Source: Escherichia phage UE-S1
Reading direction: 5' to 3' (one strand)
Sequence record: ON568341.1
DNA: 64,000 nt
The notes beneath the pieces were generated by a model that saw only the letters and a list, made by a program, of their open reading frames with translations, searched no databases and was not told where the DNA came from. Positions 13,500 to 63,643 of the stretch are shown here, piece after piece. The translations under genes and the position numbers were made by a program. Position 1 is the first letter of the stretch. Each line of letters begins with the position of its first letter.

Positions 13500-13507
13500 T
13501 AAACCAA

Positions 13508-13536: not shown

Positions 13537-13550
13537 TATATGGAGATTTT

Positions 13551-14405: not shown

Positions 14406-14422
14406 GACAAAATAGAAGTTAA

Positions 14423-14463: not shown

Positions 14464-14469
14464 AATCCT

Positions 14470-15136: not shown

Positions 15137-15682
15137 ATGATGGCATTTATTAAAAAAGAAAAAACTATTACTTATAAAACTTTGAATTTTGATGATTGTA
15201 TTAATCAATCACAGGACGAAAATATTTTTACTGGATATGTGGTTATTAAAGAAAAAGGATGCATTTCTTATATAAAGGAATTGCAAAATGGCATTGAAGT
15301 CACTTCAGTTAAATTACTTCCTACACAAAAACCAACAATATCAAAAGCCCAGTACGGTAATTATTTCGAGGAAAGATACAGTAATAATTTAATAAGTGTT
15401 AAAGCTCATATTGTAAAAGGAGAACTAGAAGGAGAATATAGAAAATTCAACCCACAAGGAAAATGTGTTTGGGTTAAATACTACAATTCAGGTGTTGACA
15501 TAACATCTGAAATTATTGAGTTTTTAGGATTGACATGTACACCTGAAACTCTTCATGACTACAAATTTAATACTGAAGAAGAGTTTAATCTGATGATGCG
15601 TTATGGATCACATTTTAAATTTTTATATGAATATAACGTTGACAGTAGTATTTTTGATAAAATAGTACATAATTGTCTATAA
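15137..15682 (+). CDS. hypothetical protein
   Basis: 181 aa ORF. Confidence 0.55.
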   Translation: MMAFIKKEKTITYKTLNFDDCINQSQDENIFTGYVVIKEKGCISYIKELQNGIEVTSVKLLPTQKPTISKAQYGNYFEERYSNNLISVKAHIVKGELEGEYRKFNPQGKCVWVKYYNSGVDITSEIIEFLGLTCTPETLHDYKFNTEEEFNLMMRYGSHFKFLYEYNVDSSIFDKIVHNCL

Positions 15683-15698
15683 CAAAAGGATTTATATA

Positions 15699-16220
15699 AT
15701 GTCGAAGAAGGATACTTCGAATAAACATTCAGTACATTTCAGTACTGGAAAAGATAACTGGACAACCCCAAAAGATTTTTTTGAAGATTTAGATGAGTTA
15801 TGGGGATTTACACTTGATGCTGCTTGTGTAGATGAGACTGCATTGTGTGATAATTTTTTCACTCCAGAAGATGATTCACTGTCACAGGATTGGGGAAATA
15901 ATATAGTTTGGTTGAATCCACCATATAGTGACTTAAAAACATGGTTATCTAAAGCTGTAGATGCATATAATAACGGAGCAACTGTAGTTATTCTTGTACC
16001 CTCAAGAACCGATACAATTGCTTTTCAGGATTATGCTGCTAAAATATGTGATTGTATTTGTTTTATTAAGGGAAGATTGCGATTTGGTATACCAGAAGAA
16101 CCCGATAAGAAAACTGATTCAGCACCATTTCCTTCGTGTCTGATAGTTCTGGATAAGTACTTAACCACTGCTAAAATCAATTGTCTTAAATCTCTCGGAT
16201 TGGTGATGAAGAATTTATGA
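15699..16220 (+). CDS. DNA N6-adenine methyltransferase, phage Dam-like
   Basis: NPPY motif (VWLNPPYS) and N-terminal FTLDAACVD region, as recalled for the phage N6-adenine MTase family. Confidence 0.7.
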   Translation: MSKKDTSNKHSVHFSTGKDNWTTPKDFFEDLDELWGFTLDAACVDETALCDNFFTPEDDSLSQDWGNNIVWLNPPYSDLKTWLSKAVDAYNNGATVVILVPSRTDTIAFQDYAAKICDCICFIKGRLRFGIPEEPDKKTDSAPFPSCLIVLDKYLTTAKINCLKSLGLVMKNL

Positions 16221-16750
16221 AAGAAACATGTATATTATCATTTATGAGATGTAACCCAGTCCACAATGGACATGGTTTAGTTTTTGAAAAGGCCAAAACA
16301 TTACAAGAACAGTACAATGCTGATTTAAAAATTTATCTAAGCACTAGTACTGACAATATAAAAAACCCACTACCACCTGAACTAAAAATGTATTATACAG
16401 AGGGATTCTATCCTTCAGTGCAAGAGAACATCTACACAGAGGACAATCTATTTGATATAATGAGAGAACTGGATGGAAAGTACTTAGATGTTCTCTTCAT
16501 ATGTGGTTCTGACCGTATTGATTCTTTTCAGAAAACCCTTGACACTTACAATGGGAAGTTGTATAATTTTTGTAATATAAAAGTAATTCAAGCAGGTATT
16601 GACCGCCAATCAAGTCGATATAGCTCAACACAAATGCGTAAGTTTGCCAAAAATGAAGATTTTGATAGTTTTCGTGAGTTTTTGCCTGGAAATGACGAGA
16701 ACTTAAAAATTCAATTATTTGAAGATGTTATAAAATACATGAGGAAATAA
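16217..16750 (+). CDS. cytidylyltransferase-fold nucleotidyltransferase, NMNAT-like
   Basis: HxGH motif (NPVHNGH) near N-terminus and SSTQMRK (ISSTxxR-like) near C-terminus; ATGA overlap with upstream. Confidence 0.6.
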   Translation: MKETCILSFMRCNPVHNGHGLVFEKAKTLQEQYNADLKIYLSTSTDNIKNPLPPELKMYYTEGFYPSVQENIYTEDNLFDIMRELDGKYLDVLFICGSDRIDSFQKTLDTYNGKLYNFCNIKVIQAGIDRQSSRYSSTQMRKFAKNEDFDSFREFLPGNDENLKIQLFEDVIKYMRK

Positions 16751-16752
16751 TT

Positions 16753-17046
16753 ATGTCAGTACTGTTCAAAACTAATCCAGTACTTTGGGAACAAAATGAA
16801 CAATCAGGATTTCGTTCCATCCATGTTGAATACAAAGGTAATACAGTAGTTGCAATTATTGCTAACAAAACTCTAGGAAAATGGACCGCACAGGTTGTTC
16901 CTATGGGCTATTCTTATACATCTGATGAGGTTCAATTTTTAGCTGAACTTTATCGTCAAGTTCCTTTTATTATTAATGTGTTAGAAGGCAATGATACATT
17001 ATCACATGAAGATGTGATTGATTTTCTTGGAAACTTACATGTGTGA
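16753..17046 (+). CDS. hypothetical protein
   Basis: 97 aa ORF 2 nt after upstream stop. Confidence 0.5.
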   Translation: MSVLFKTNPVLWEQNEQSGFRSIHVEYKGNTVVAIIANKTLGKWTAQVVPMGYSYTSDEVQFLAELYRQVPFIINVLEGNDTLSHEDVIDFLGNLHV

Positions 17047-17326
17047 TGAAATAAATCTTACAGGATATTTTTTACAAGAATCTATGATTAAATTTAGTGA
17101 ACATTTCCCAGTACTGGATGGTATCGAAATGTGGCATGTCAAACCACTGTTCCACACTTTCAGTAAAGAGCACAAAATGTTATTGACTGAGGCGAGTAAA
17201 TCAAATAACATATGTGAAATCAAAATTGGTGTAAATGTCTATAAAGGGATGGTTATCTTTTTTGACAATAACAGCAACTACTTTTATATTGTTAAGGAGC
17301 ATTACGTTGACAAATACAAATACTAA
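17018..17326 (+). CDS. hypothetical protein
   Basis: 102 aa ORF. Confidence 0.5.
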   Translation: MIFLETYMCDEINLTGYFLQESMIKFSEHFPVLDGIEMWHVKPLFHTFSKEHKMLLTEASKSNNICEIKIGVNVYKGMVIFFDNNSNYFYIVKEHYVDKYKY

Positions 17327-17915
17327 TACATACTTCCGTTATCTTCGCTTAGGTCTTTCCCTGCGACCGATCCGTGGAAAGTGCGATTCACTCGCGGACC
17401 TTGACTATGCATATGCATTACATCATGAAGGTGTACAGTATGTATTGGGTGATTATGGTGAATTTGAAGAAACAAATGACAGTACTGGAATTAATGCTGG
17501 TGTAGATAATCTCAACAACATTGCAAACAGTTCTCGTCATGATATTGTATTACAAATCCAGAACTTTATTGAGCAACACACAGGAAAACGTGTTTGGTGC
17601 TATGTCGGAACTGATGCACAAATGTCTATTTCATTCGGTAATGATGATGGATATGTCGCACAGCTAATTATGGATTTTGAATCTGAAGAGAAGTTTTTAG
17701 AATTTAAAGAGAAAATCATCAAATCACTCGTTGATATGGGTGTCCCCGAAAATAAAATGCCAGAAGTTCAAAATATTGATGAATTTGTTTTGATTCCATC
17801 TGATGAGAAATATGATGCAATGTTTACTGCTCTTGATATTCCTGGAGTTATTGTGGAGTACTTTGATGATGGTGATGATAGTATCTATATAGATCTAGAT
17901 GACGACGATGAATAA
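17235..17915 (+). CDS. hypothetical acidic protein (poly-Asp/Glu C-terminal tail); start uncertain
   Basis: Track ORF; no in-frame ATG between 17238 and about 17620; C-terminus DDGDDSIYIDLDDDDE; GC-rich stretch 17340-17400 inside the 5' part. Confidence 0.45.
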   Translation: MSIKGWLSFLTITATTFILLRSITLTNTNTNTYFRYLRLGLSLRPIRGKCDSLADLDYAYALHHEGVQYVLGDYGEFEETNDSTGINAGVDNLNNIANSSRHDIVLQIQNFIEQHTGKRVWCYVGTDAQMSISFGNDDGYVAQLIMDFESEEKFLEFKEKIIKSLVDMGVPENKMPEVQNIDEFVLIPSDEKYDAMFTALDIPGVIVEYFDDGDDSIYIDLDDDDE

Positions 17916-37165: not shown

Positions 37166-37861
37166 ATGGTTGAACAATTCAATTTTGGTGGTTATGCTAA
37201 TGGTGAAGTAAGTAACATTTCTATTCCGTATGTAGTTGAAAAAGTTAATGGTTCAGAGCGTACATATGATCTAGCATCTCGTATGATGCAAGACCGTATC
37301 ATTTTCCTTGATACTGATTTCAATGACCAGATGGCACATATCATCAAACAACAATTGGTGTGGTTAGACTCACAAGGTGATTCCCCTATTACATTCTATA
37401 TTAGTTCACCAGGTGGTTCAGTACATGCAGGTTTGGGCATCGCTGATATTGCTAAATCTTGTGTATCACCAATCCGTACTGTAGTAATGGGTTATGCAGC
37501 ATCAATGGGGTGTTATACACAATCTGTTATTGGGACTAAAGGCTTCCGTTTGGGTGGTAAACGTTCCTACTTCATGTGTCACCAAGTAAGTTCTGGTACG
37601 AAAGGTCTAATTACTGACCAGAAAATTTCACTTAAACATTCTGATGAACTGAACACGTTGCTGACGAAAGAAATCGCTGAAGCTGTTGGTGTTTCTCATG
37701 AACAACTACTGAAAGATGCAGACCGTGATTTGTGGTTGAATGCTGAAGAAGCACTCGAATATGGTGAAAAAGGATTTATCGATGGTATTATCCTTGGACC
37801 ACGCAACGAGAAAGGTCAATACCTAGTCAAGCGTCGTGGTGGTGTTGAAGAGTGGGTGTGA
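37166..37861 (+). CDS. ClpP-like serine peptidase
   Basis: 231 aa; SSPGGSV, catalytic-Ser box GYAASMG, His box MCHQ, Asp region DADRDLW..AEEALEYG. Confidence 0.85.
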   Translation: MVEQFNFGGYANGEVSNISIPYVVEKVNGSERTYDLASRMMQDRIIFLDTDFNDQMAHIIKQQLVWLDSQGDSPITFYISSPGGSVHAGLGIADIAKSCVSPIRTVVMGYAASMGCYTQSVIGTKGFRLGGKRSYFMCHQVSSGTKGLITDQKISLKHSDELNTLLTKEIAEAVGVSHEQLLKDADRDLWLNAEEALEYGEKGFIDGIILGPRNEKGQYLVKRRGGVEEWV

Positions 37862-39726: not shown

Positions 39727-39980
39727 CAGTAATGGTGATTATTGGTTTTTTAGTAATATTGTTATTCATTTTTATTTTATCAATGGTTGTCATTGATGAA
39801 CCTAATAGTTCTGTTAGAAATTATGAAGTTCGTTTTTCGGCACAAAACAATAAGTACTATATTGTAAACTGTGTGCATCGTAGTGAGAAAAAGGTAACTG
39901 GTAGGTTTGGATTTACAATTTATTATAAAGATCGAGTAGAAGCTGATATGATTTGTCAGAAACTTAATACAGTAGAATAA
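39723..39980 (+). CDS. small membrane protein
   Basis: 85 aa; N-terminal TM helix; ATGA overlap. Confidence 0.5.
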   Translation: MTVMVIIGFLVILLFIFILSMVVIDEPNSSVRNYEVRFSAQNNKYYIVNCVHRSEKKVTGRFGFTIYYKDRVEADMICQKLNTVE

Positions 39981-39985
39981 AAAAA

Positions 39986-40007
39986 GGAGCCACATGGCTC
40001 CTTTTTT
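39986..40007. terminator. bidirectional rho-independent terminator
   Basis: A-run, GGAGCCACATGGCTCC hairpin, T-run; lies between convergent + operon and the - strand gene. Confidence 0.65.
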
Positions 40008-40281
40008 ATGTTTTTACGTAATATGTATAGACAATTATGTAGTTTGATTTTGCGAATCATATACATAGTACAAAAACCTTCAACACTTGCTTCTTCATCT
40101 TTCAATTTAATGAAGAACGTATCATCTCTTAGATTATTAAAATATATAGTTTACAGAAAATAACTTCTCACTATTAATTTTAGCACCTGTAATTTCGATA
40201 CCATCAATAGAAAAAGGTTAATGCAATTATACTTCACGAAGGAAAGTGCATGAAAATTATCATGCACTATATTATTAAAAT

Positions 40282-42183
40282 TTACGCACTGATTGTTACA
40301 GTTGCAGTATCTGTTTTATTACCATCAGCAGTAGCCACTGTAATGACTACAGAACCTTCTTCTAGAGCAGTTACTAATCCCTCATCACTAATAGATACTT
40401 TAGTAGGTTCATCTGCACTATAAGTTACTGATTTGTTAGTTGCGTTAGATGGAAGAACTTCTGGAACTAGTTGAACTGTTTTAGTACCTGATAGTGAAAG
40501 TTCAGTAGTTTTAGGTGTTAAACTAACACTGGATACAGGAACTGGAATATTAACAGTAATAACACCTTGACCTGTTTTACCACTTCCATCAGCAGCAGTT
40601 GCGATAATGTTTGCAGTACCATTAGTTAGTGCAGTTACAATACCAGTACTAGCATCAACTTTTGCTACAGCAGGTTCACTAGAAGACCATGTTACAGATT
40701 TATTAGTTGCGTTAGATGGAAGAACTTCAGCAGCCATTGCTTGAGTTGCTTTAACAGCAGTCAATGTTTTAGTTGCTGGAGTAACATTAATAGATGCTAC
40801 AGGAACTGGAATATTAACAGTTACCACGCAAACTTTAGTAAATCCACCATCAGATGTGGTTGCTGTAATATTTGCAGTACCGTTTGCAACAGCAGTGATT
40901 AACCCAGTTGGACTTACCGTTGCGACACCCTCAGCAGAAGTAGTGTATGAAATATCTTTACGACGAGCGTTATCTGGAATAACAGATGCAGTTAATTGTT
41001 GAGTAGCACCTACCGAAGTTAGGGTTGCGGTCAACGGAGTCATATTAATACCAGTTACTGGGATCGTTACATCAATCACTGATTCAGCAGTTTTAGCACC
41101 ATCATCAGTGGTAACAGTAATAGTTGTAGTACCGTTATCAACCGAAGTTACTAGACCAGTATTACTAACTTTTGCTACGTCTGGATATGAAGAAACATAT
41201 GAAACTGCTTTATTGGATGCAGTTGCAGGAGCAACGGTTGTTTCTAATTGTTTAGTATCACCTAATGTTGAGAATGTATAAGTACTAGGAGTCATAGTGA
41301 CACCAGATACCGGTGTTTTCACAGTGATAGTAGTAGTATCAGTTTTAGCACCATCTTCGGTTGTTGCTGTAATCACCACTGTACCGTTAGCAACACCAGT
41401 TACTAGACCAGAAGTAGGGTTAACGGTTGCTACATCAGGTGTTGCTGAAGACCATGTAACGTTTTTATTAGTTGCATCATCAGGAGATACTGTAGCCGTT
41501 AATTGTTGAGTACCGCCAACGTTAATTGTTGCAGTTTTAGGAGAAACAATAACACCACTAACTGGAGTTGTTACGGTAAATGCACAAACATCGGTGAAAC
41601 CACCATCATGAGTAGTAACTGTTACATTTGCATTACCATTAGCACGGGCAATTGCTAAACCAGTTTCAGCATCAACTTCAACTATTGTTGGAGCAGAGGA
41701 ACTATAACTTACTGTTTTATCATTTGCATAATCTGGATCAATTGTAGCTGATAGCTGTTGTGTACTACCAACTTTAAGTGCTACAACTTTAGGTGAAATA
41801 ATAACACCATCAACTGGAGTAGTATAATCACGTTTAACCACACGACCATTGTTCAATTTAATAATACGACCCATATAAAGAGTAGTATATCCCTTACTAA
41901 TCCCATCATCTACATAAATCATGAATGAATTGTCTTGAACCATATTAATTGCGTCTACTGGTTTAACGGAATTTGGAATGTCGATACCACGGGTATCATA
42001 CCAACACATGGAAACTTTGTAATAGATATCACCATTATCATTTATGAGATCATAAACGTTACTGGAACGTTGACGGTTAATATATAAAGTTTCGGTTAAC
42101 ACCTTACCATCGATTTTAGCGACAGAAACTTTAATACCACCAATACCAAATGGCAATTTACCTTCACTAGATATTGCTTTCAT
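40282..42183 (-). CDS. Ig-like (Big_2) repeat protein, putative virion decoration or adhesin
   Basis: 633 aa on minus strand; about 120 aa N-terminal domain followed by about six tandem repeats (VSPKTATINVGGTQQLTATVSPDDATNK..W.S....VATV); TATAAATA motif upstream. Confidence 0.65.
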   Translation of the reverse strand: MKAISSEGKLPFGIGGIKVSVAKIDGKVLTETLYINRQRSSNVYDLINDNGDIYYKVSMCWYDTRGIDIPNSVKPVDAINMVQDNSFMIYVDDGISKGYTTLYMGRIIKLNNGRVVKRDYTTPVDGVIISPKVVALKVGSTQQLSATIDPDYANDKTVSYSSSAPTIVEVDAETGLAIARANGNANVTVTTHDGGFTDVCAFTVTTPVSGVIVSPKTATINVGGTQQLTATVSPDDATNKNVTWSSATPDVATVNPTSGLVTGVANGTVVITATTEDGAKTDTTTITVKTPVSGVTMTPSTYTFSTLGDTKQLETTVAPATASNKAVSYVSSYPDVAKVSNTGLVTSVDNGTTTITVTTDDGAKTAESVIDVTIPVTGINMTPLTATLTSVGATQQLTASVIPDNARRKDISYTTSAEGVATVSPTGLITAVANGTANITATTSDGGFTKVCVVTVNIPVPVASINVTPATKTLTAVKATQAMAAEVLPSNATNKSVTWSSSEPAVAKVDASTGIVTALTNGTANIIATAADGSGKTGQGVITVNIPVPVSSVSLTPKTTELSLSGTKTVQLVPEVLPSNATNKSVTYSADEPTKVSISDEGLVTALEEGSVVITVATADGNKTDTATVTISA

Positions 42184-42219
42184 ATACTTTCCTTTATAAA
42201 TTGTATTGTATTGTTATAT

Positions 42220-42227
42220 TATTTATA
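42220..42227 (-). promoter_or_regulatory. T4-type late promoter motif TATAAATA (minus strand)
   Basis: Reverse complement reads TATAAATA about 40 nt upstream of the minus-strand ATG at 42183. Confidence 0.45.
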
Positions 42228-42493
42228 TTATAACAAAATTATTTTAGTATTAAAAAAGGAGTTCTAATGCTCCTTTAAAATATAAAGGAACATACTGTGT
42301 AAATCTGGTTTGGTCAGGTTAATCTTTCAGAGAGAAGGAAGTAGTGAATGACATTTTATCATTAAAATCATCTCCTTATCTTTAAAATGGAATTGTAAAC
42401 TGCCTCTTAATATGATACCATAGTTCAAATGGTAAATCAATGAACTTAACAAAAAAAACTTGATACTACAGTCATAATTGTTCAGTTTTGTGC

Positions 42494-42522
42494 TTGACAT
42501 AATTAATCAATTATTGTACTAT
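42494..42522 (+). promoter_or_regulatory. sigma70-like promoter candidate
   Basis: TTGACA, 17-nt spacer, TACTAT; 36 nt upstream of the 42558 start. Confidence 0.45.
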
Positions 42523-42557
42523 TAATAATGTTCCTTAACTCAAATCCGAGGTAATTA

Positions 42558-43163
42558 ATGAAACGATTATTGAAAGAGATTATACAAACCGTTGTTATAA
42601 TTGCTGCATTAAACTTTCCTGCGGCGGCAGAAGTTTCAAAAAAAGCATCTGTTTTTCTATTAAATGATCATGTTGGGTCAATTGATGGTGAACTAAATGA
42701 TAAAACTGTACAAGATGTGGAGCAGTTGTGGAAAGAAAAAAAATTTAAAATTTTAACAATTACATCACCTGGTGGTGATTTTGATGCTGGTATTAAAATG
42801 GGAAATTTTGTTAGAGACAATGGTATAAATTTAATTGTTTCTAGATATTGCAATTCAGCATGTACTGTGGTATTCTTTAGTGTGCCCCCTGAAAAGCGAT
42901 ATATGACAAATCAATCAGTACTGGGATTACATAACATTTCGATCAAAAGTAACGTTAGAGATAGGGATAATACCTTTGTATCTGTTAGACAATTATCAAC
43001 ATTTACTGAAGAAATGGCAACAAAAGTAGGATTTTTATTTACACTATATTCAGCTAATGGAATTCCACCTAGCGTTCTATATAGAGTTAGTCGTGCACGT
43101 GGTGAAGATGTTGTTATCTTAACAAAAAAAGACCTAATTCATTACGGTTCGGTAAATCCATAA
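42558..43163 (+). CDS. secreted ClpP-fold (S14/S49-like) protein with N-terminal signal peptide
   Basis: 201 aa; hydrophobic N-terminus ending AAAE; TSPGGDFDAG resembles ClpP NSPGG box; RYCNSACTV at the Ser-box position. Confidence 0.45.
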   Translation: MKRLLKEIIQTVVIIAALNFPAAAEVSKKASVFLLNDHVGSIDGELNDKTVQDVEQLWKEKKFKILTITSPGGDFDAGIKMGNFVRDNGINLIVSRYCNSACTVVFFSVPPEKRYMTNQSVLGLHNISIKSNVRDRDNTFVSVRQLSTFTEEMATKVGFLFTLYSANGIPPSVLYRVSRARGEDVVILTKKDLIHYGSVNP

Positions 43164-43231: not shown

Positions 43232-43492
43232 ATGACAAACATCCAGAATTTGACGTCTATTATTTTTTATGCTACAGTGGTGATGTATACTATTGTACTT
43301 ATTTTAACAGTTTTTATTTACAAAGATTACAAAAAAGGCTTTATTAATAGCTCAACAATGAAGTTCAATTCTAAATTTGAAGCAATTATATTTTATGTTT
43401 TGACAACATCATATTTGTTGTGTATAATGTTATTAGGGTCATTGATTTATATTTTATATACAACATTATTTGCAATTGGAGCTATTTTATGA
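43232..43492 (+). CDS. small membrane protein
   Basis: 86 aa, three hydrophobic segments. Confidence 0.5.
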   Translation: MTNIQNLTSIIFYATVVMYTIVLILTVFIYKDYKKGFINSSTMKFNSKFEAIIFYVLTTSYLLCIMLLGSLIYILYTTLFAIGAIL

Positions 43493-44085
43493 CATGTATT
43501 ATTGCACACACTGATGGTGTAACTTCATTTATTGCAGGGGACAAGATGGGGAGTGATGGTTTTACGAAATCAATCCAAACAGAGCCTAAAGTGTTTGAGA
43601 AAGAATTTGTAAAGATTAGTGGTGATGACGGCTTGACTCGTACAAAAGATGTTATGACAATTGGATTCACTACATCATTTCGTATGGGTCAACTGCTAAC
43701 TTATAATTTAAATTTACCAGACCAAAATTCAAATGAGACGTTTCTACAGTATTTAGTACTGAAAGTTATTCCTATTATTCGTCAAATGTTTAAAGACGAA
43801 TGGGGTGCACGTGATACAACACAAGATGTTGGTGGTGGTCAATTTATTATTTTGCACAATCATAAGATTTATGAAATTCAGGAAGATTTTTCAGTTCTCC
43901 AGGCAAAATCAAGAGTTGCATCAGTTGGTAGTGGTACATATCATGCAATTGCAGCGATGCAAGCATACATTGATCTTGAGAAAGAAACTAACGTACAACT
44001 ACATGAACGTATCAAATCCATTTTCAAAATTGTCAGTGATAATGTGTCGAGTGTAAGCGAAGAGTTTGATGTATTAAAATATTAA
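43489..44085 (+). CDS. HslV-like Ntn-hydrolase peptidase (proteasome beta-type)
   Basis: Track ORF 43420; ATG at 43489 overlaps upstream stop; N-terminus MTCIIAHTDGVTSFIAGDKMGSDG matches HslV MTTIVSV..G...IAGDGQ; SVGSGTYHAIAA matches GSGG.YALAAA. Confidence 0.6.
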   Translation: MTCIIAHTDGVTSFIAGDKMGSDGFTKSIQTEPKVFEKEFVKISGDDGLTRTKDVMTIGFTTSFRMGQLLTYNLNLPDQNSNETFLQYLVLKVIPIIRQMFKDEWGARDTTQDVGGGQFIILHNHKIYEIQEDFSVLQAKSRVASVGSGTYHAIAAMQAYIDLEKETNVQLHERIKSIFKIVSDNVSSVSEEFDVLKY

Positions 44086-46294: not shown

Positions 46295-47734
46295 ATGAAA
46301 AAATATACAATTGACACAAACGTACTTCTATCTGACCCTAATGCATCTATTGCGTTTGATGGTGCTGCAATCATTCTACCATTTACTGTTCTAGAAGAAT
46401 TGGATTCAATTAAGAGTCGTAGTGTGGATGTTTCACGAGATGCTCGCGTTGCTATTCGTAACATTGAAGCAATTATTGCAAATGCATCTCATGATGAAAT
46501 TAGTAGTTCTGGTGTTAATATTGCTGATGTTCATACCAATATGAATCCTGACAGCAAATTGTTTGTTATTACAAACGAAGAAGCTGAAGCACTAATTCGT
46601 ACTAAAGGTTCAAACGACAAAGTTCAAACCCTTCTCAAAAGCACTGTACCTGATGATAAAATTATTCTGGTAGCTTTAGCAACCGAATCAGTACTGGTAA
46701 CTCGTGATATCAACATGCGTATCAAAGCACTAAGTTATGGTGTCGAGGTACAAGACTATCGTCATGATATTGTTATTGGTGATAGTGATTTGATTCACAT
46801 TGGTCAACATCATATGGAAATTAATTTTTGGGATGTATATAGCAATTTAACAAATACAAATATTAAAACTGAACAAATCGGTCGTCGATTGTATCATTAC
46901 ATCCCTAAAAGCTTGATTGAGCATTTGCTTCCACAAAATCTATGTATTGGTGATTATCTATATGATGATGCTGATGTATTATTTGTATACGAAGGTCAAT
47001 CAGCCATTGAGGAAGATGATGGTACACTAACACCAGAAGATATTTTGGTATTCCAAGATATTGGTCAATCAGTAGCGTTGCGTACTAAAGTATGGGATAT
47101 TAAAGCAAAGAATATTCAGCAAGCACTTGCCATCAACAGTATTCTCGATCCTGATGTACATCTAACAGTACTACTAGGTTCGGCTGGAACTGGCAAAACA
47201 TTAGTGACGATTGCTACTGCACTAGAGTTAGTACTGGAAAAACGCAAATATGACCGTGTTGTGTTCTCAAAACCACAAGATTCACAATGGGCTGAAATTG
47301 GTTTCTTACCAGGTTCCGAAATGGAAAAAATGCTACCACATTGTGGCCCTGCACTGGATGCATTAGAATTTTTACACAAAGATGATGCCTCACCACAAGG
47401 TAGTATCGAAGAGATTCTTAAACGTAACGTGATGCAATTTAAAGCACTAAACTTTGTGCGTGGACGCTCATTCACTAATACGATTCTTGTAGTTGATGAA
47501 TTCCAAAACATTACACCTGCACAAGCAAAAACTATCTTGACACGAGCAGGATTAAACTGTAAAGTAGTGATTATGGGAAACTTAGCACAGATTGATAGCA
47601 AATTTATCAGTCCAGTAAACAGTGGTTTGACATATGTAACTGAAAAATTCAAAGATTGGAGTGGTTGCCGTATCATTGAATTAGAAGGTGTTGTTCGTTC
47701 ACCACTTGCTGAATTTGCTGAAGAAAATATGTAA
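46295..47734 (+). CDS. phoH: PIN-domain / PhoH-like ATPase
   Basis: 479 aa; N-terminal PIN-like region (IDTNVLL...LEELD); P-loop GSAGTGKT; Walker B VVDEFQN. Confidence 0.85.
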   Translation: MKKYTIDTNVLLSDPNASIAFDGAAIILPFTVLEELDSIKSRSVDVSRDARVAIRNIEAIIANASHDEISSSGVNIADVHTNMNPDSKLFVITNEEAEALIRTKGSNDKVQTLLKSTVPDDKIILVALATESVLVTRDINMRIKALSYGVEVQDYRHDIVIGDSDLIHIGQHHMEINFWDVYSNLTNTNIKTEQIGRRLYHYIPKSLIEHLLPQNLCIGDYLYDDADVLFVYEGQSAIEEDDGTLTPEDILVFQDIGQSVALRTKVWDIKAKNIQQALAINSILDPDVHLTVLLGSAGTGKTLVTIATALELVLEKRKYDRVVFSKPQDSQWAEIGFLPGSEMEKMLPHCGPALDALEFLHKDDASPQGSIEEILKRNVMQFKALNFVRGRSFTNTILVVDEFQNITPAQAKTILTRAGLNCKVVIMGNLAQIDSKFISPVNSGLTYVTEKFKDWSGCRIIELEGVVRSPLAEFAEENM

Positions 47735-47739
47735 TATAG

Positions 47740-47771
47740 TATGGGACGTACTGTCCCATACATGATATAAT
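47740..47771 (+). promoter_or_regulatory. hairpin plus TGATATAAT extended -10 element
   Basis: TATGGGACGTACTGTCCCATA hairpin directly followed by TGATATAAT; upstream of the 47803 gene. Confidence 0.4.
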
Positions 47772-47991: not shown

Positions 47992-48084
47992 TTCATTTGA
48001 AGCAATATTATGGAGTTCTTAATAAATACTTTTATAAGAATAATAATACTTTTTATTAAATTAAAAAGAACTCCATGTGTTATT

Positions 48085-57070: not shown

Positions 57071-57518
57071 AGATGACCTTATTAATGGTGAGGGGGTGAG
57101 ATGTTCCCTCTTTGTTAGTGGGTGCAGTCATGGGTGTCCTGGATGCTTTAACGAAGTTGCATGGGATTACCGAAGTGGACAAGAGTTCAGTACTGAAACA
57201 ATTGATATAATTTTAGCTGAACTCAGTAAACCGTACATTAGTGGGTTATCACTACTTGGTGGAGATCCACTAATGAAAAAGAACATCGAAACAATTTTAG
57301 AACTATGTAAAATTGTAAAAGATACTTATCCAAATAAAACTATTTGGTGCTGGAGTGGGTATACTTTACAAGAGATTATGGTCAATCATGCCTCTCCAAT
57401 ACTGGAGTACATAGATGTATTGGTTGATGGTAAATTCATAGAAGCAGAAAAGAATTTAAAATTACCTTTTCGTGGTTCTAACAACCAACGAATTTTATAT
57501 AAAAATAAAGATTTTTAG
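57048..57518 (+). CDS. nrdG: anaerobic RNR activating enzyme NrdG (radical SAM)
   Basis: 156 aa; CSHGCPGCFN cluster motif; collinear with recalled T4 NrdG (MNY...NG.G.R..LFV.GC.H.C.GC.N). Confidence 0.9.
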   Translation: MNYQTIIKDDLINGEGVRCSLFVSGCSHGCPGCFNEVAWDYRSGQEFSTETIDIILAELSKPYISGLSLLGGDPLMKKNIETILELCKIVKDTYPNKTIWCWSGYTLQEIMVNHASPILEYIDVLVDGKFIEAEKNLKLPFRGSNNQRILYKNKDF

Positions 57519-57523
57519 TACAA

Positions 57524-57546
57524 AAGCACCCGTCGGGTGCTTTTTT
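57524..57546 (+). terminator. rho-independent terminator
   Basis: GCACCC-GTC-GGGTGC hairpin followed by TTTTTT. Confidence 0.65.
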
Positions 57547-57554
57547 GTTATGTA

Positions 57555-57562
57555 TATAAATA
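57555..57562 (+). promoter_or_regulatory. T4-type late promoter motif TATAAATA
   Basis: Exact TATAAATA about 30 nt upstream of the 57594 start. Confidence 0.5.
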
Positions 57563-57593
57563 CATTAACTAATATCTAATTTATAAGGGATAT

Positions 57594-60293
57594 ATGATGT
57601 CAAAGAAAATATATGGTGGATTAGATGTCACACATAATGTGACAGTTAATGGAAAAAGAACAATACAAGGTATTAACAAACAAGTGTTTGACGAAAATGG
57701 TAATATGGTGTTGGATACATATTCAAAAAATGAAATGAATGATATCATTGGTATGTTACCAATTTCACATTATGGTTCCATGAACTATCTACCTGCTGGG
57801 GTCGGTGGGGATTTCAATGGTGCATCAGAAAATCAGGCATATCGCAGGAATAAGGTATTATTGGAAAATGATGGAACACTCGTTCTTTTGCGTAGTGGTA
57901 CAAACGGTAGTGTTGAAGGTTTATATTATTCTTATTTGTCTAATGCATTAGCAGTTACTGATATGAGTCGTACAATTAACACAAGTCGTCAATACAAACC
58001 AGGATTCTTCGGTCCAAATCGTGTTGCACTTGGTTTATTTAACACTGATCAAAATATTATAATGGGGAGATATAAAGATATTTCAAACAACACAATTGGT
58101 ACATTCATTTCTATTACTAATGGTACACTTAATGATACATTACACACAGGTTTTTTTGTAAATCAAACTGATATATCACCTGAAGGTGGTGTTGAATATG
58201 CTATGATGGCAGAAGACGGTTCAATATATGTTTTTAATGTAATTAATGAAAATAATAAATTTGAAATAGCCATTGTTAAAGTTGTATTTAATGTGGATAA
58301 TGGTTCTTACACAGCAACCCGCATCACAGGGTGGACTACAAAAACATTTTATAATACTACTTATTCTGGGCAAAATAATATTGTGATAACTAATGCAATG
58401 ACGTCAACTAATATTGCGGATAAGCCTTATGTATTTGTTCCTCCGAATTTGTATGGTATGGGGATTTATATGACATCTATTGATTTATATGTTGCACAAC
58501 AACCAGGAACACAAAATTTTCGTTTCAGGATGAATGGTGACGCTTATTTCGCCATGCCAACATATAGTTCGCGTCCACAACACAATTATAGTTTCACGTT
58601 CGATATGAACTCAAAGCAATGTACATTAGATGCAGGTAACGATATTGGCTCCTTCCAAGCACCGTTGGTTATAACAAATACAGGTTCTGACTTAGTTGCA
58701 TCTGGTAATGTGTTGAATTTAGACCCACTATATGACCACAATGGATATAGAAACATTTATAGTTCATATTTTTATTTAAATTCTGGTGACGTGTTTTGTA
58801 CTGCATGTCCAAACTTAGCAGAGCCACTCGCTATGCAAAAAGCAAAGTTTCCTGTGCAAATAGTATATAACATGTTAAATGTTCGTGCTGTTATATCATC
58901 AAACTTCATAGGTGGTATCGTCCGACCATCATTTGGTTCAGCGGTTGGTTCATATATTAATGGCGTTGAACTACTTCCAGATAACAGTACTAAACAATAT
59001 TCACGAGCATCTGGTTCAGGTGGTTTTAGTCCGTCATATGCAGTTCATAAAAGTACTCCGAATTTTACATTTCAATCGTTATCATTGGGAACAATTCAAG
59101 GTTATGAACCCACCACTGAGCGTAAAAATGTAAGTGAAAATAACAACAATAGAATTTTCATTAGTACTGTGTCTGGGTCAACAGTTACAACTAATGGTGG
59201 TATTTTTATGGTCGGACAACGTTATTCACAATCACTGTCTTTTGATAAAAACTTAAATGGTACAGGTAGTATTAGTGTTTCGCAATCAGTTCTTGATGGG
59301 TTCAGAGACTCTGAATATGCTAAAGTTTTAAGTGATTGGAATTTATCTCCGCAAGCGGGTAAAGATATGACATTGTTTGTACCGCAACAAGCGGATATTC
59401 CAGCATTTGTCATGCTCAGTACAATAACTAATGATTTTAAAAACTACATTAGAATTGCTGAAGTTAATGTAAACACCAGAGTAGGTGAAATCAAATCGAT
59501 AACATTCAAGCGTTTAGTTCTTGAAAATAGATATGGTGATAGTTTCACACCGAATGTTGGCGGTTATATTGCACCATCATCTGTTGGTTTAACAATTTAT
59601 GATGGTGGTTCTTTTTATTTCATTGGCGGTTCAGATCCATTAACACATCCAACAATTGGTAATACAGCAACACACATATTTCGTGCATACGTAAACAAAT
59701 CATCTGCACAATTTGAGAGTTTTATTATTGATGGTATCCATGCGTACTATAATCAAGGCCGTCAATTCACTGCATTACCTGATATTGGATTTGGATATTT
59801 TGATACAATAGACTATGATAACAAAATGATTTTCCGCAAATGTGGAACTACTATTGAAGAATATAATAACTGGAAAGAACAAGGTAATCCAATCAACGTT
59901 GTTTCACAAGATGTTGCACAAGGATTTGTTGTTTATTTTACAGAAGAAACTCCAGTTATTCTTTCTGGTAAATCATTTACCTTACCAGTGTCAAATATTG
60001 ATTTAAGAACAATAAAGCCAAACCCAGCCAATACAACATTTCATGTATATGTTAAGTTAAAACAAGGATTAGTAACTTATCATATAACTACCGATGTTAT
60101 TTCAGAAACTGGGACAATTGCATATAATATATTGTGGATAGGAACAATTAGAACTAACGATATTCAAATTGTATCAATTGATATACAAAAACGTTCACGA
60201 TTGGATATTTTTGGTGCTTCACTTGAAGCGGCAGGGGTTTCGTTCCCAGTCAGCTACGGTCTACCATCACAAACAGGAACCATAAACTGGTAA
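57594..60293 (+). CDS. tail fibre-like protein A (paralog of 60911..63643)
   Basis: 899 aa; late-promoter motif upstream; Ser/Thr/Asn/Gly-rich; N-terminal, internal (VSQDVAQGF.VYFT) and C-terminal modules shared with the two downstream ORFs. Confidence 0.55.
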   Translation: MMSKKIYGGLDVTHNVTVNGKRTIQGINKQVFDENGNMVLDTYSKNEMNDIIGMLPISHYGSMNYLPAGVGGDFNGASENQAYRRNKVLLENDGTLVLLRSGTNGSVEGLYYSYLSNALAVTDMSRTINTSRQYKPGFFGPNRVALGLFNTDQNIIMGRYKDISNNTIGTFISITNGTLNDTLHTGFFVNQTDISPEGGVEYAMMAEDGSIYVFNVINENNKFEIAIVKVVFNVDNGSYTATRITGWTTKTFYNTTYSGQNNIVITNAMTSTNIADKPYVFVPPNLYGMGIYMTSIDLYVAQQPGTQNFRFRMNGDAYFAMPTYSSRPQHNYSFTFDMNSKQCTLDAGNDIGSFQAPLVITNTGSDLVASGNVLNLDPLYDHNGYRNIYSSYFYLNSGDVFCTACPNLAEPLAMQKAKFPVQIVYNMLNVRAVISSNFIGGIVRPSFGSAVGSYINGVELLPDNSTKQYSRASGSGGFSPSYAVHKSTPNFTFQSLSLGTIQGYEPTTERKNVSENNNNRIFISTVSGSTVTTNGGIFMVGQRYSQSLSFDKNLNGTGSISVSQSVLDGFRDSEYAKVLSDWNLSPQAGKDMTLFVPQQADIPAFVMLSTITNDFKNYIRIAEVNVNTRVGEIKSITFKRLVLENRYGDSFTPNVGGYIAPSSVGLTIYDGGSFYFIGGSDPLTHPTIGNTATHIFRAYVNKSSAQFESFIIDGIHAYYNQGRQFTALPDIGFGYFDTIDYDNKMIFRKCGTTIEEYNNWKEQGNPINVVSQDVAQGFVVYFTEETPVILSGKSFTLPVSNIDLRTIKPNPANTTFHVYVKLKQGLVTYHITTDVISETGTIAYNILWIGTIRTNDIQIVSIDIQKRSRLDIFGASLEAAGVSFPVSYGLPSQTGTINW

Positions 60294-60304: not shown

Positions 60305-60892
60305 ATGGCATATAAAATAAGAGCAGATCTTAAAGCAATGGAACAGGTTACAGTACAAGGTAAAAGAACTGGACTTGGTGTGTTAGGTAATAATATGACG
60401 TATTATCCAACAAATTCAGATGGGGAATGTACTTTCCCATCTATTACAAAAGATGATATTGATTTTATTGTAAATGGTTTTCCCATTACACAATATGGTG
60501 AATTATATGATAATGAAAATCTAAATATTACATCATCTGGTAACAAACTTACATTTAATAGAGAGATACCATCATTTATTGGTGGTTATCTATACAAGTT
60601 TCCGGCAGTTTCTGTTTTTGCATCACCAGTTACATCGGGAACACAGACTCAATATGTATATGCAACATTGGTTCTAGGTGAACCAATTTATAAAGTATCT
60701 CCGATACAAATGCAAGAATCTGAAATTATAATGTTTATTGGTACTATTATTGTTGGAACAAGTGGTATTACAAATATAAACATCGATAAGGTGTCAAGAT
60801 TTAGTACGTTTAGACCTAACGTTACACAAAAAGGTTCGTCATTCCCAGTTAGTTCTGGAAAACCATCCGAAACCGGTTCGATTAGTTGGTAA
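60305..60892 (+). CDS. short tail fibre-like protein B (shares C-terminal module)
   Basis: 195 aa; C-terminus KVSRFSTFRPNVTQKGSSFPVSSGKPSETGSISW parallels the C-termini of both flanking large ORFs. Confidence 0.5.
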   Translation: MAYKIRADLKAMEQVTVQGKRTGLGVLGNNMTYYPTNSDGECTFPSITKDDIDFIVNGFPITQYGELYDNENLNITSSGNKLTFNREIPSFIGGYLYKFPAVSVFASPVTSGTQTQYVYATLVLGEPIYKVSPIQMQESEIIMFIGTIIVGTSGITNINIDKVSRFSTFRPNVTQKGSSFPVSSGKPSETGSISW

Positions 60893-60910: not shown

Positions 60911-63643
60911 ATGTCATCAAAACGAATTATAGGAAGTGCTGAGATCCTTGGAAACTTAGCGATTGGTGGAAAATATGCAATGCGTACATTTAACGGAACT
61001 TCCCCCGATGCAAACACTGGAATAGTTAATTATCCAATATATAATAGGTCGGAAGTACAACGTATTTTAGACATGCTACCAATATCACGTATAGGAGAAA
61101 TGGATTATCTTCCATTAAACGTGAATGGCTCATATGAAGGGGCAACATCAAATTCAGATATATATCGCGTTCAACCGACTATCATTGAAGATGATGGAAC
61201 TGGTGTGGTATTACGTGCAGGTACTAATGGTAGTGAAAAAGGTTTCTATTATTCTTTCATACGAGATTTAAGAAATGTTTCTTCTTTAACTCAAGATATG
61301 GTCATTTCAACCACAAGTAAATATAAACCATCCATTCTCAGTGCTGGGGAAAGTGTTACTAGATTTATTGGTTCTAATGGGTATGAGCTTTTAGTTTCAT
61401 ATACATCGAACTTAAATTATATTTTTACGTTAACAAATGGTACATTCAATGAAACATCCCATATCCATGCTAAATTGGTTGGTACACAATTTAATACGGA
61501 TAAACCATTATATGCACATATAGTTGGGGCAAATATATTCATTTGGTGTAAAGATACAACAGTAACTAATGGTGGCATGGCATATACATTATACACCGTA
61601 TCAAAAAGTGATGTGATTAATGGCACGATGACATCTTTTGCTAAAGTTACAGGATTTTCTGGACAAACAGTTAGAAATACAAGCTATAGTTCATCAAACA
61701 ACATTCGTGTATTTGATAGTTATTTTTCCACAAATTCTGACTCGGACTCTCTATTTGTTATTAACAGTCCCGTGAATAGTGTAGAGTATATTGATTATAA
61801 TGACTATAATATCCAAGCGAATGCCAGTTCTGATAACTCTAGAATACGAGTTACTTTATATATAACACCACGTTTCAGTACACCATTGATTGTATCTCCT
61901 GTATTCGCAACAGGTATAAGTTTTGTTTATACTATTAGCTCAAAATCTATGTCATTGGACGGTAGTGCCAGAGCACCAGTTACAGTATCGTATACTAATA
62001 ATAAGTTTGTGGTTTCTAACCAGTTTGAAATTTCAATGAGTAATTTTACTGGTTCAAAGAACAGTTTATCTTCATTAGGTGATTGTGGCTCAATATGTCA
62101 AACAACAGATGGTCTAGTTTTCACTTCAAAATCCAGATGGGTTTCTGATGAGACATATGGCTTACAACTATATAAAGTTCAAGGTACACCATACGATAGT
62201 TGGGTTGCTAGTTCCCGTAAAGCAAGTGATTTAATAAACGTAAATGTTAAACCAACATACGGTTCGGCTGTAGGTGAAAACTTACTTGGTGTTAGATTCA
62301 TTGATACCAGAAAGATACTTCTTGCATGTTCAAGTACTAGCAATGGTGTAACTTATGGTTATGATAGTACTGTGTATTCTCAAATTGGGGAAAATCCAAC
62401 ACATACATATAATAGTGTTACTACTGGAAAATCTATAGAAGGGTTTGCACCTGAATCAGAACGTAAATATCTAGGTAATAGTTATGATTACAGTGCTATG
62501 ATTTCGTTAATCGCAGAAGACGGTACAGTAAGGTCTTATGGTTCATCATTTATTGAAGGAATTACCAAAGATGCAACTGGGTTACTAGATCCAGTTACAA
62601 TGACATTCTCTGGAAAATATACAATATCTGATGCTACTTTAATGGAGTTAAAACAATCTATCATTACTAGCTCTAAAATTTCTGGTACTAGTACTTCTAG
62701 AATATGCTTTTATTATGTACCTGACACTACATTCTCAAGATCTATGGCAGTCGTTTGTACATACAGCCCAACTAATAACCAAGGGTATGCTATTTTTGCT
62801 GAAGTTGATGTTGTACTTAGTGGTTCTGAAATCACAAGTGCATCAGTATATTCAACTAGATACGAAGTTGAAGATAATGTTTCTGGTATACAAAGCAATG
62901 CAATATTAAAGCGTTGCACGGGAATGACAGTTGCGAAATACACAGGGTTCAATTATCTTGGAATTGATACAATTCACCAGTTCACTGTACCTGGCGATGT
63001 TCATCAAAAAATGATGATAGCTAAAGTTAAAAATGGAGATATTAGTAGTAATCGTTATTTCACAACTTATCATGTTAATGCTAATAATAGCTTTGCTTTC
63101 CAACATGGTGCAATTCCCAATGTTGGGTTTGGGTATTATAACTTCAACATTTCAGATTTACAGACAAAAGCAGTTTTTTCTGTATTTGGTACAACTGAAG
63201 CACAAATGGATGGTTTGATTGCGGGGACTGGAGCAGTGCTGAATAATTATGTCATTGTGTCACAGGACGTTGCACAGGGTTTTAACGTATACTTCACTCG
63301 TGATGTACCAGTGTTTTTGGGTGGAATGTTTGACAGACTACCAGTTCAAAGTATAGATTTGAAAACTATTAAAACTAATCCTGCTAACAGTACTTTTTAT
63401 ATTTACATTCAAATGGATCGCAACACTGGAAAAGCGGCATACGTTATTAGTACTACCCTTCTCGATGAGACATTGACAAATGTTTATATTGGTAATATCA
63501 TCACTGGAAGTACAAGTATCACGTCGATTGATACTGAAAAGGTAACTCGCTTCTTGACCTACCGACCTAGTACCACAAAACGTGGGTCCGCAATACCTGC
63601 CAGTACTGGTGTACCATCTGGGCCTGGCTCCCGTTGGAAATAA
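60911..63643 (+). CDS. tail fibre-like protein C (paralog of 57594..60293)
   Basis: 910 aa; N-terminal MLPIS..G.M.YLP and internal VSQDVAQGFNVYFT..P..L......P.QSIDLKTIK.NPAN.TF segments shared with protein A. Confidence 0.55.
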   Translation: MSSKRIIGSAEILGNLAIGGKYAMRTFNGTSPDANTGIVNYPIYNRSEVQRILDMLPISRIGEMDYLPLNVNGSYEGATSNSDIYRVQPTIIEDDGTGVVLRAGTNGSEKGFYYSFIRDLRNVSSLTQDMVISTTSKYKPSILSAGESVTRFIGSNGYELLVSYTSNLNYIFTLTNGTFNETSHIHAKLVGTQFNTDKPLYAHIVGANIFIWCKDTTVTNGGMAYTLYTVSKSDVINGTMTSFAKVTGFSGQTVRNTSYSSSNNIRVFDSYFSTNSDSDSLFVINSPVNSVEYIDYNDYNIQANASSDNSRIRVTLYITPRFSTPLIVSPVFATGISFVYTISSKSMSLDGSARAPVTVSYTNNKFVVSNQFEISMSNFTGSKNSLSSLGDCGSICQTTDGLVFTSKSRWVSDETYGLQLYKVQGTPYDSWVASSRKASDLINVNVKPTYGSAVGENLLGVRFIDTRKILLACSSTSNGVTYGYDSTVYSQIGENPTHTYNSVTTGKSIEGFAPESERKYLGNSYDYSAMISLIAEDGTVRSYGSSFIEGITKDATGLLDPVTMTFSGKYTISDATLMELKQSIITSSKISGTSTSRICFYYVPDTTFSRSMAVVCTYSPTNNQGYAIFAEVDVVLSGSEITSASVYSTRYEVEDNVSGIQSNAILKRCTGMTVAKYTGFNYLGIDTIHQFTVPGDVHQKMMIAKVKNGDISSNRYFTTYHVNANNSFAFQHGAIPNVGFGYYNFNISDLQTKAVFSVFGTTEAQMDGLIAGTGAVLNNYVIVSQDVAQGFNVYFTRDVPVFLGGMFDRLPVQSIDLKTIKTNPANSTFYIYIQMDRNTGKAAYVISTTLLDETLTNVYIGNIITGSTSITSIDTEKVTRFLTYRPSTTKRGSAIPASTGVPSGPGSRWK

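Follow-up and report, generated by a model that had tools for sequence, protein, structure and literature searches.

What does a single gene placed against the direction of its neighbors do for a giant phage? The question is raised by a stretch of 64,000 nucleotides (nt) from Escherichia phage UE-S1 (sequence record ON568341.1), which we analyzed over its whole length and refer to as the window, and in particular by the open reading frame (ORF) 40282-42183 on its minus strand. This ORF begins with an ATG at 42183, ends with a stop codon included at 40282, and encodes a product of 633 amino acids (aa) with a predicted mass of 64.8 kDa and a predicted pI of 4.8. Among the 101 ORFs of at least 90 aa in the window, seven others lie on the minus strand (91 to 215 aa), and every one of them overlaps plus-strand ORFs. 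The gene is thus the sole free-standing minus-strand gene in 64 kb, as claimed in a preliminary description made from the sequence alone, and in the annotated relatives only the same locus is found on the opposite strand. We propose that its product is a decoration protein, made late in infection and exposed on the virion surface of a Rak2-like, Asteriusvirus-type jumbo myovirus, a reading to which we assign a probability of about 0.68.

The protein, its N-terminal module, and its relatives in virions

A Pfam search with the 633-aa protein returned six Big_2 domains (PF02368; E = 6.5e-92, 302 bits against a cut-off of 22.8), and the protein also matched PHROG 215, a "structural protein with Ig domain" (Ig, immunoglobulin). 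The product consists of a 122-aa N-terminal module followed by six Big_2 units of 84 to 88 aa, in agreement with the preliminary description, which had read an N-terminal domain and about six Ig-like repeats. In the AlphaFold 2 (AF2) model of aa 1 to 290 (predicted local distance difference test score [pLDDT], 91.8), each Big_2 unit is made of 8 to 9 beta strands and no helix. An Ig-like beta-sandwich fold of the units is very likely, given their sequence matches to solved Big_2 domains. These matches in the PDB are Big_2 domains of virion proteins, namely, the "Hoc-like protein ORF90" (7x30; E = 1e-7), the decoration proteins 9kmh and 9kzj, the T5 tail tube protein pb6 (E of about 6e-6), and the major capsid protein 6qvk (E of about 3e-3). 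Sequence prediction over the whole protein gave no signal peptide and no transmembrane segment, and no further copy of the module or of Big_2 was found elsewhere in the window. A scan of IMG/VR with the full protein returned only unrelated phages having Big_2 in common and was not used.

The evidence that such a protein is part of the particle comes from its relatives. The flanks of the locus are about 92% identical to the Asteriusvirus jumbo coliphages G17, phAPEC6, PBECO4, and 121Q, of about 350 kb, thus indicating that the phage is a Rak2-like, Asteriusvirus-type giant myovirus, and its sequence places the 633-aa protein among the Rak2-like virion Ig proteins, together with RaK2 gp496, CBB_112, and GAP32_111. 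In published mass spectrometry of CBB virions, CBB_112 was detected with 4 peptides and 24% coverage, and CBB_112, GAP32_111, and RaK2 ORF496 are marked as mass spectrometry positive in the virions of all three phages (PMC5259590). In phAPEC6, the array-less protein gp347 (14.1 kDa) was found with 8 unique peptides and 75.2% coverage, the highest among 62 virion proteins, compared to 74.9% for the major head protein and 68.0% for the tail sheath (PMC7247149). Absence from virions together with lack of an Ig fold, the outcome that the preliminary description had named as contrary to its proposal, is thus not what is seen in these relatives. On the basis of the detection of the orthologues and of gp347 in virions, we conclude that the 633-aa protein is very probably a virion surface protein.

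The N-terminal module belongs to no Pfam or NCBIfam family and matched only PHROGs 33171 and 10468, both labeled "virion structural protein." Its AF2 model (pLDDT, 91.3; predicted template modeling score [pTM], 0.84) shows beta strands arranged in small barrels plus one helix, for which neither a sequence match nor a fold match was found in the PDB. Fold matches in BFVD were limited to its own family, with the CBB and fHe-Yen9 homologues at template modeling (TM) scores of 0.63 to 0.84 to the module, and to proteins of the Agrobacterium jumbo phage Atu_ph07 and of uncultured phages. A word-indexed protein search with the module gave only two fragments, and an exhaustive HMMER search of 1.84 billion representatives yielded 57 proteins with the module, 102 to 1859 aa in length. 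In 54 of these 57 matches the module stands at the N terminus or within ten residues of it, the remaining three being one N-terminally cut protein and two weak internal matches. What follows the module varies from zero up to arrays far longer than a thousand residues, built from Ig-like domains of differing families: about half of the proteins carry Big_2, and the others carry Invasin_D3/Big_1 or HYDIN-like Ig domains. By tblastn, the module was found in 54 phage records, all of them jumbo genomes of 310 to 383 kb except for the 47-kb record of Klebsiella phage phiKp_21. In addition, a 911-bp contig of the Logan assembly encodes a 176-aa fragment (P0001) that shares the first 123 aa of the 633-aa protein with 100% identity, suggesting that the same or a near-identical phage is present in a public sequencing run.

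That gp347, a natural truncation to the module alone, is incorporated into virions is the strongest indication at hand that the N-terminal module would be the virion-binding part of the protein. Its constant N-terminal placement, the variety of the arrays behind it, and its higher conservation than that of the central Ig units point in the same direction, and from these observations together we infer that it docks the protein onto the virion.

Late expression and proposed role on the virion

The motif TATAAATA is found at 42227..42220 on the minus strand, 36 nt 5' of the ATG, and the start codon is itself backed by the Shine-Dalgarno sequence AAGGA at 42190-42194 and by an N terminus, MKAI..GKLPF, that is kept in phages A4, ph0011, and 121Q. 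Only two copies of TATAAATA occur in 64 kb, compared to 13.6 ± 3.5 expected from shuffled sequences (about 7-fold depletion), and the 7-mer ATAAATA is found 6 times compared to 47.4 ± 7.3 expected (about 8-fold depletion). This depletion, of the kind that a functional signal would be expected to show, suggests genome-wide selection against spurious late promoters, and since the motif is purged from the window rather than common in it, a chance origin of its position before the Ig gene appears very unlikely. The sequence (T)ATAAATA is also found about 30 to 40 nt 5' of the orthologues in ph0011, A4, JNE01, BF, GAP32, CBB, and fHe-Yen9-04, despite diverged surrounding DNA, so that the position of the motif is kept in orthologues of four genera. 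In CBB, the ATAAATA motif was derived by the authors from the upstream regions of structural genes, the promoter of the orthologue (Porf_112) is among the predicted late promoters, and a gp55-like sigma factor is encoded (PMC5259590). A sigma-70 promoter for the Ig gene was considered and rejected, the sites found by the scan being no more numerous than in shuffled sequence and none of them being well placed. The preliminary description had pointed to a late-promoter motif on the gene's own strand; rarity and conserved position both support it, and a T4-type late promoter very probably drives the gene.

The six ATAAATA sites of the window lie at 9223 and 19526 on the minus strand, at 42220 on the minus strand before the Ig gene, and at 48022, 56241, and 57556 on the plus strand; four of the six are intergenic, and in just two cases does a start codon follow at a suitable place. 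The copy at 48022 lies within the loop of a long intergenic hairpin (GGAGTTCT...AGAACTCC; 48010-48075, plus strand) upstream of gene 48218. The only other TATAAATA is found at 57555-57562 (plus strand), 31 nt before the gene for an 899-aa protein at 57594, and its layout is that of the Ig gene, with a terminator hairpin, TTGTTAT-N-TATAAATA, about 20 nt, and AATTTATAAGGG..TATATG (57480-57596). The leader AATTTATAA(A/G)GG...TATATG is common to both genes. Gene 57594-60293 is followed on the same strand by 60305-60892 (195 aa) and 60911-63643 (910 aa), and the three are paralogues of PHROG 3573, a family of unknown function; they are probably late genes and perhaps structural ones.

Taken together, these data are consistent with the following scenario. 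Late in infection, transcription from the T4-type late promoter (TATAAATA) with the help of a gp55-like sigma factor would give strong expression of an Ig gene that is otherwise isolated and opposite in strand to an operon of nucleotide metabolism and protease genes, and codon optimization and a good Shine-Dalgarno sequence would allow efficient translation. The 122-aa module would then dock the protein onto the assembled particle, as the presence of truncated forms in virions suggests; the capsid surface is slightly favored as the attachment site, and the tail or the collar is possible. The six Big_2 domains, joined by short Pro/Val linkers, would project as a flexible rod of about 20 to 25 nm, assuming about 4 nm per Ig domain. 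As proposed for phage Ig-like domains in general and for T4 Hoc, the rod may bind weakly and multivalently to surfaces rich in carbohydrate, for example mucus or the host envelope, and such contacts would raise the rate of encounter with host cells. A role in the adherence of phages to the host or to mucosal surfaces is generally ascribed to Ig-like decoration proteins, and they are used as display platforms, as in the case of T4 Hoc.

Several observations weigh against this proposal. Detection in virions stems from RaK2, GAP32, CBB, and phAPEC6, not from the carriers of the long form (this phage, A4, and ph0011), and copy number can be gauged only roughly from sequence coverage, above all in the case of a 14-kDa protein. 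The motif TATAAATA is absent within 110 nt upstream of the short forms 121Q gp471 and phAPEC6 gp347. In addition, phAPEC6 has conspicuous capsid and tail "hairs" and yet only the array-less 125-aa form at the locus, which implies that the array is not the hair of that phage. Most Asteriusviruses lack the array, indicating that it is dispensable in the laboratory and that its benefit is conditional at best. Finally, none of the phage Big_2 arrays among the Rak2-like virion Ig proteins has, to our knowledge, a known ligand.

Where on the particle the module might sit can be considered in the light of cryo-electron microscopy (cryo-EM) of related phages. Maps of phAPEC6 and 121Q show a second layer of protein density with 1620 copies, a number equal to that of the capsid protein, a fibre-anchoring protein at each hexamer center, and collar and tail decorations, none of which has been assigned to a protein. 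The cryo-EM paper on phiKp24 describes a T=27 capsid that lacks a separate decoration protein and is not informative for a homologue. The module is thus a concrete candidate for the surface proteins left without assignment in phAPEC6 and 121Q. Going further, we consider it conceivable, at clearly less than even odds, that the module is an unrecognized virion-docking domain specific to jumbo phages, with a fold unseen in solved structures, that it corresponds to one of the as yet unassigned proteins that decorate the T=28 Asteriusvirus capsid in high copy number or anchor its fibres, and that the locus is a "plug-and-display" hot spot. If this were true, Ig arrays would be attached, swapped, lengthened, shortened, or deleted on a constant anchor, with one to four genes per locus, and arrays from zero units up to proteins of about 1,900 aa (Big_2, Invasin_D3/Big_1, or HYDIN-like) would tune the reach and the stickiness of the capsid surface.

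The decoration protein that we propose is otherwise an ordinary structural accessory gene product; its less ordinary aspects are the jumbo-phage-specific anchor module and the rapid turnover in the numbers of Ig domains and paralogues. A compact conserved anchor that tolerates arrays from zero Ig units up to proteins of about 1,900 aa could possibly serve as a display scaffold on therapeutic jumbo coliphages.

Alternative functions and the history of the locus

An Ig array could also act as a tail fibre-like adhesin, the protein being a primary receptor-binding or host range protein that sets which strains are infected. The length and the sequence of the array do vary between phages isolated on different Escherichia coli hosts, and some of the PHROG matches are labeled "tail fiber protein; host specificity." These PHROG matches, like the "tail" labels in general, align to the Big_2 units only, and the protein has no trimeric fibre, beta-helix, depolymerase, or tip domain and no adjoining chaperone gene. 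Moreover, most Asteriusviruses infect E. coli with the array deleted, and dedicated tail fibre proteins are encoded elsewhere in such genomes (phAPEC6 gp248, gp256, and gp314). We thus regard a receptor-binding role as unlikely.

The preliminary description had further noted that GC content and codon usage differ from those of the neighbors and had taken this to suggest acquisition as a cassette. The first part is correct. The GC content of the Ig gene is 0.379, compared to a neighbor mean of 0.326 (z = 1.5, an unremarkable value; six genes are higher), the GC content at codon position 2 (GC2) is 0.50 (z = 4.1), and that at codon position 3 (GC3) is 0.148 (z = -2.4), below 82 of the 83 neighboring genes. 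The frequency of optimal codons (Fop), calculated with a codon list of the Ikemura type for E. coli, is 0.579 compared to 0.487 ± 0.017 at fixed amino acid content (z = 5.5), the highest of 84 genes in the window. The excess at codon position 2 reflects a protein rich in Thr, Val, Ala, Ser, and Gly, and the shift to host-optimal codons reads as a signature of high expression, not of foreign origin. The low GC3, the position 2 excess, and the host-optimal codons together led us to reject a foreign origin deduced from GC content.

The second part, a recently acquired foreign cassette (moron) outside the ancestral jumbo phage gene set, did not hold up, and we consider it decidedly improbable. Apart from the GC difference, it could draw on the fact that the Ig-coding DNA is matched in only 2 of 38 related records (A4 and ph0011), the rest matching the flanks only, and on the pattern of identity to A4, where the N-terminal module is 93% identical in DNA, the module and units 5 and 6 together 93 to 95%, and units 1 to 4 only 69 to 76%, pointing to recombinational exchange. 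The position of the gene tells against it, since a gene with module and Big_2 lies on the opposite strand next to the dCMP deaminase gene, from which a small ORF usually separates it, in RaK2 (gp496, 212 aa), CBB (CBB_112, 218 aa), GAP32 (303 aa), Serratia phage BF (301 aa), and Yersinia phage fHe-Yen9-04, which has two tandem copies. In JNE01 (302 aa), the opposite-strand gene is found among the same protease, Sir2, and Nudix neighbors, the annotated stretch having no deaminase-sized gene beside it. The placement by dCMP deaminase recurs in five other phage genera, Alcyoneusvirus, Mimasvirus, and Eneladusvirus among them; this recurring synteny settles the cassette question and indicates that the position is ancestral to the whole Rak2-like group. 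It is also largely the case that there is no closer donor outside the Rak2-like phages and that the phylogeny of module and Big_2 is congruent with the phage backbone. The repeats are mutually 53 to 65% identical in DNA and hence old, and we also rejected an origin of the six units by recent tandem amplification on this ground.

Decayed paralogues on both flanks of the gene further indicate loss and decay at an old locus, not insertion. Downstream, a pseudogene corresponds to the 124-aa paralogue A4_463, which is intact in A4; tblastn gave 83% identity over aa 82 to 122 and 62% over aa 12 to 37, and the pseudogene has lost its ATG region, carries frameshifting indels, and has an internal deletion of about 130 nt. 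Upstream, a stub is left (68% identity over 25 aa to A4_465 at 42363..42289 by tblastn), with about 430 nt deleted relative to the A4_466/465 pseudogene. A4 keeps this longer wreck of the upstream paralogue as A4_466 and A4_465, and A4_466 matches residues 1 to 53 of the intact 1095-aa P0021 N terminus. In most Asteriusviruses, only the 125-aa protein (121Q gp471, phAPEC6 gp347) and a 43-aa fragment (gp472) are left. Since 121Q gp471 is 65% identical over all 122 aa to the N terminus of a 538-aa Invasin_D3/Big_1 protein and ends at the linker, it is a truncated long form, and the truncation remnants kept by the phages with short forms only (121Q gp472) give the polarity of the change as loss, not gain.

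The cassette claim was right in spirit in one respect, namely, that the locus is highly variable. True orthologues have 6 (this phage), 7 (A4), or 9 (ph0011) Big_2 units, and they differ in length by indels of 83, 86, and 88 aa, which keep the phase of the unit period and fall no more than a few residues from unit boundaries. Across the relatives, the number of Ig domains is 0, 1, 2, 6, 7, or 9, and the number of paralogues varies as well. Relative to A4, units 1 to 4 make the gene a recombination mosaic. Comparison of these sequences indicates that the display part changes fast, as whole domains are gained or lost, sequences recombine, and one Ig family replaces another, and that the anchor is conserved. 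In a 357,761-bp contig of GCA_012813795.2, four consecutive opposite-strand genes for Ig-like repeat proteins of 1095 (P0021), 839, 541, and 733 aa are found at 8001-17745, the N-terminal module being present in the first of them only.

A non-virion protein acting in or on the infected cell, for example in superinfection exclusion or in cell-cell adhesion, and merely contaminating the virion preparations, would suit the surroundings of the locus, which are non-structural genes (dCMP deaminase, ClpP-like and HslV-like proteases, Sir2, and Nudix), and the virion proteomes of the same phages do list apparently non-structural proteins (PhoH, single-stranded DNA-binding protein, and thymidylate synthase). 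We give this explanation very little credence, given that its relatives were found in four independent virion proteomes of four phages, with top coverage in phAPEC6, that the protein has no signal peptide or membrane segment to carry the Ig array to the cell surface, and that its late-promoter motif is common with structural genes.

The least probable alternative, a tail tube or "major tail protein," follows the product names of the RefSeq and GenBank records (RaK2, K64-1, GAP32, and CBB) and strong matches to the "major tail protein" PHROGs 341, 41, 3575, 885, and 853, and can be dismissed on the grounds that these matches cover only the C-terminal Ig part of the profiles (for example, 63-148/154, 155-244/245, and 377-460/461), six times along the protein and with no tube domain, that no tail tube protein in the PDB matched the fold of the N-terminal module, and that these phages are myoviruses with separately identified sheath and tail proteins. 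The records concerned are NC_019526 (RaK2), NC_027399 (K64-1), NC_019401 (GAP32), and KU574722 (CBB), and one Erwinia phage record has "putative major capsid protein" instead. Both names are misleading and rest on the common Big_2 domains only; "major tail protein" is an annotation artifact arising from Big_2 domains common with siphovirus tail tube proteins, so that assignment to the virion Ig proteins corrects a misleading annotation of the RefSeq orthologues.

The features of the locus are collected in Table 1. The preliminary description had the gene bounded by a bidirectional terminator at 39986-40007. A hairpin with A-run and T-run is indeed present there, extending from 39980 to 40007 and kept after A4_463 in A4, but it is not adjacent to the gene, 274 nt lying between it and the stop codon; these contain the hairpin 40245-40268 and the pseudogene. 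Hairpin 40245-40268 has no clean T-run on the minus strand, and its activity as a terminator is uncertain. The hairpin upstream of the late promoter is kept in A4 with stem changes (AAGGAGTC..GACTCCTTTTTT) and closes the decayed upstream paralogue; it was read from the sequence since it falls below the threshold of the terminator scan (3 GC pairs).

Table 1. Positions of features at the Ig gene locus in the window
Feature	Position	Strand	Basis
Bidirectional intrinsic terminator common to the convergent plus-strand operon and the minus-strand locus	39980..40007	.	12-bp stem, 5 GC pairs, A-run and T-run
Pseudogene of 124-aa stand-alone N-terminal-module paralogue (A4_463 type)	40008..40244	-	tblastn, DNA alignment
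Hairpin 14 nt downstream of stop	40245..40268	.	Kept in A4 between A4_464 and A4_463
Coding sequence, virion Ig-domain protein (very probable)	40282..42183	-	ORF, Pfam Big_2 (six), PHROG 215, orthologues in A4 (722 aa) and ph0011 (890 aa)
Big_2 unit 6, aa 547-633	40285..40545	-	Pfam, unit boundaries
Big_2 unit 5, aa 459-546	40546..40809	-	Pfam, unit boundaries
Big_2 unit 4, aa 375-458	40810..41061	-	Pfam, unit boundaries
Big_2 unit 3, aa 291-374	41062..41313	-	Pfam, unit boundaries
Big_2 unit 2, aa 207-290	41314..41565	-	Pfam, predicted structure
Big_2 unit 1, aa 123-206	41566..41817	-	Pfam; predicted all-beta, 10-residue block mean pLDDT 82-98
N-terminal module, aa 1-122, putative virion-anchoring domain	41818..42183	-	All-beta plus one helix
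Shine-Dalgarno AAGGA, 6 nt before ATG	42190..42194	-	Sequence
TATAAATA, T4-type late-promoter -10 motif (predicted)	42220..42227	-	Sequence, rarity, conserved position
Terminator-like hairpin AAAGGAG-N8-CTCCTTT plus T run, just upstream of late promoter	42252..42276	-	Sequence
Decayed stub of upstream paralogue (5' region, 11-codon ORF, A4_465-like fragment)	42289..42557	-	tblastn, A4 alignment

The plus-strand neighbors encode DNA ligase, a ClpP-like protease, a "virion structural protein," dCMP deaminase, an 85-aa ORF corresponding to CBB_111, which carries the annotation of a putative membrane protein, a second ClpP-like protease, an HslV-like peptidase, Sir2, Nudix, and PhoH. Three protease-like genes bracket the locus on the plus strand, a ClpP-like "head maturation protease" (37166-37861), a second ClpP/crotonase-like protein (42558-43163), and the HslV-like peptidase (43420-44085), and the Sir2-like and Nudix genes come next. 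The PhoH-like gene (46295-47734, plus strand) contains an antisense ORF of 215 aa (47116-47763, minus strand) that is probably spurious; its phAPEC6 orthologue, gp341c, was found in virions with 30.9% coverage. A scan of the 64-kb window for tRNA genes found none.

Comparison with known systems

The closest counterparts of the 633-aa protein are A4 gp464 (722 aa) and ph0011 WAE77065 (890 aa), both annotated as "hypothetical protein." They are true orthologues, with 92 to 98% aa identity in the module and the same promoter, leader, and hairpin, and they differ in having seven and nine Big_2 units, respectively, instead of six. In A4 gp464, units 1 to 4 are only 64 to 79% identical in aa sequence, and the 124-aa downstream paralogue is intact in A4, whereas it is a pseudogene here. 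RaK2 gp496, CBB_112, GAP32_111, and BF gp105 have a homologous module (29 to 33% identity by tblastn, E values of 1e-9 to 1e-4; also matched by HMMER) followed by Big_2, lie on the opposite strand by a small membrane-protein ORF and dCMP deaminase, and carry ATAAATA about 35 to 40 nt upstream; RaK2 gp496, CBB_112, and GAP32_111 were detected in virions by mass spectrometry. Unlike the protein described here, they have only one or two Big_2 units (212 to 303 aa), and identity outside the genus is low. The 125-aa "virion structural protein" of phAPEC6 (gp347), 121Q (gp471), and PBECO4 has a homologous module (36 to 38% identity, E of about 1e-18) at the same locus and on the same strand, but it has no Ig array, and its module belongs to a sub-lineage that elsewhere carries Invasin_D3/Big_1 arrays.

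More distant systems share the domain and not its arrangement. Lambda gpV, T5 pb6, and phi29 gp8 contain the same Pfam family, but there Big_2 is a single C-terminal addition to a capsid or tube protein, and membership of the 633-aa protein in the tail tube proteins is not supported, its PHROG matches to them being limited to their C-terminal Ig portions and its module having no tube protein fold match. In bacterial intimin and invasin, Big_2 forms part of an outer membrane adhesin, whereas here a six-unit array stands on a dedicated small anchor. The NCBIfam model intimin_all scored 31 bits against a cut-off of 1400 bits and matched one Ig unit only, and with this partial match and no signal peptide or membrane domain in the 633-aa protein, it does not belong to the intimin/invasin group.

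The preliminary description had likened the architecture to capsid or tail decoration proteins such as T4 Hoc. This stands as an analogy and not as homology: the 633-aa protein has no match to the Hoc family in Pfam, PHROGs, or NCBIfam, and its non-Ig module is N terminal. In Hoc, the Ig domains are N terminal and the capsid binder is C terminal, the reverse of the order found here; the anchor modules have no sequence or fold similarity, and Hoc has three Ig-like domains compared to six Big_2 units. Hoc binds the hexamer center with one copy per capsid hexamer, and nothing links the 633-aa protein to the hexamer center density of phAPEC6 and 121Q. In outline, the two may nonetheless work alike, each as a dispensable late decoration protein in which a virion-binding module carries a projecting Ig-like array, an outline of Hoc that reportedly goes back, together with the weak adhesion to surfaces and mucus ascribed to it, to work by Fokine et al. 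(2011), Fraser et al. (2006; cited in PMC5259590), and Barr et al. (2013).

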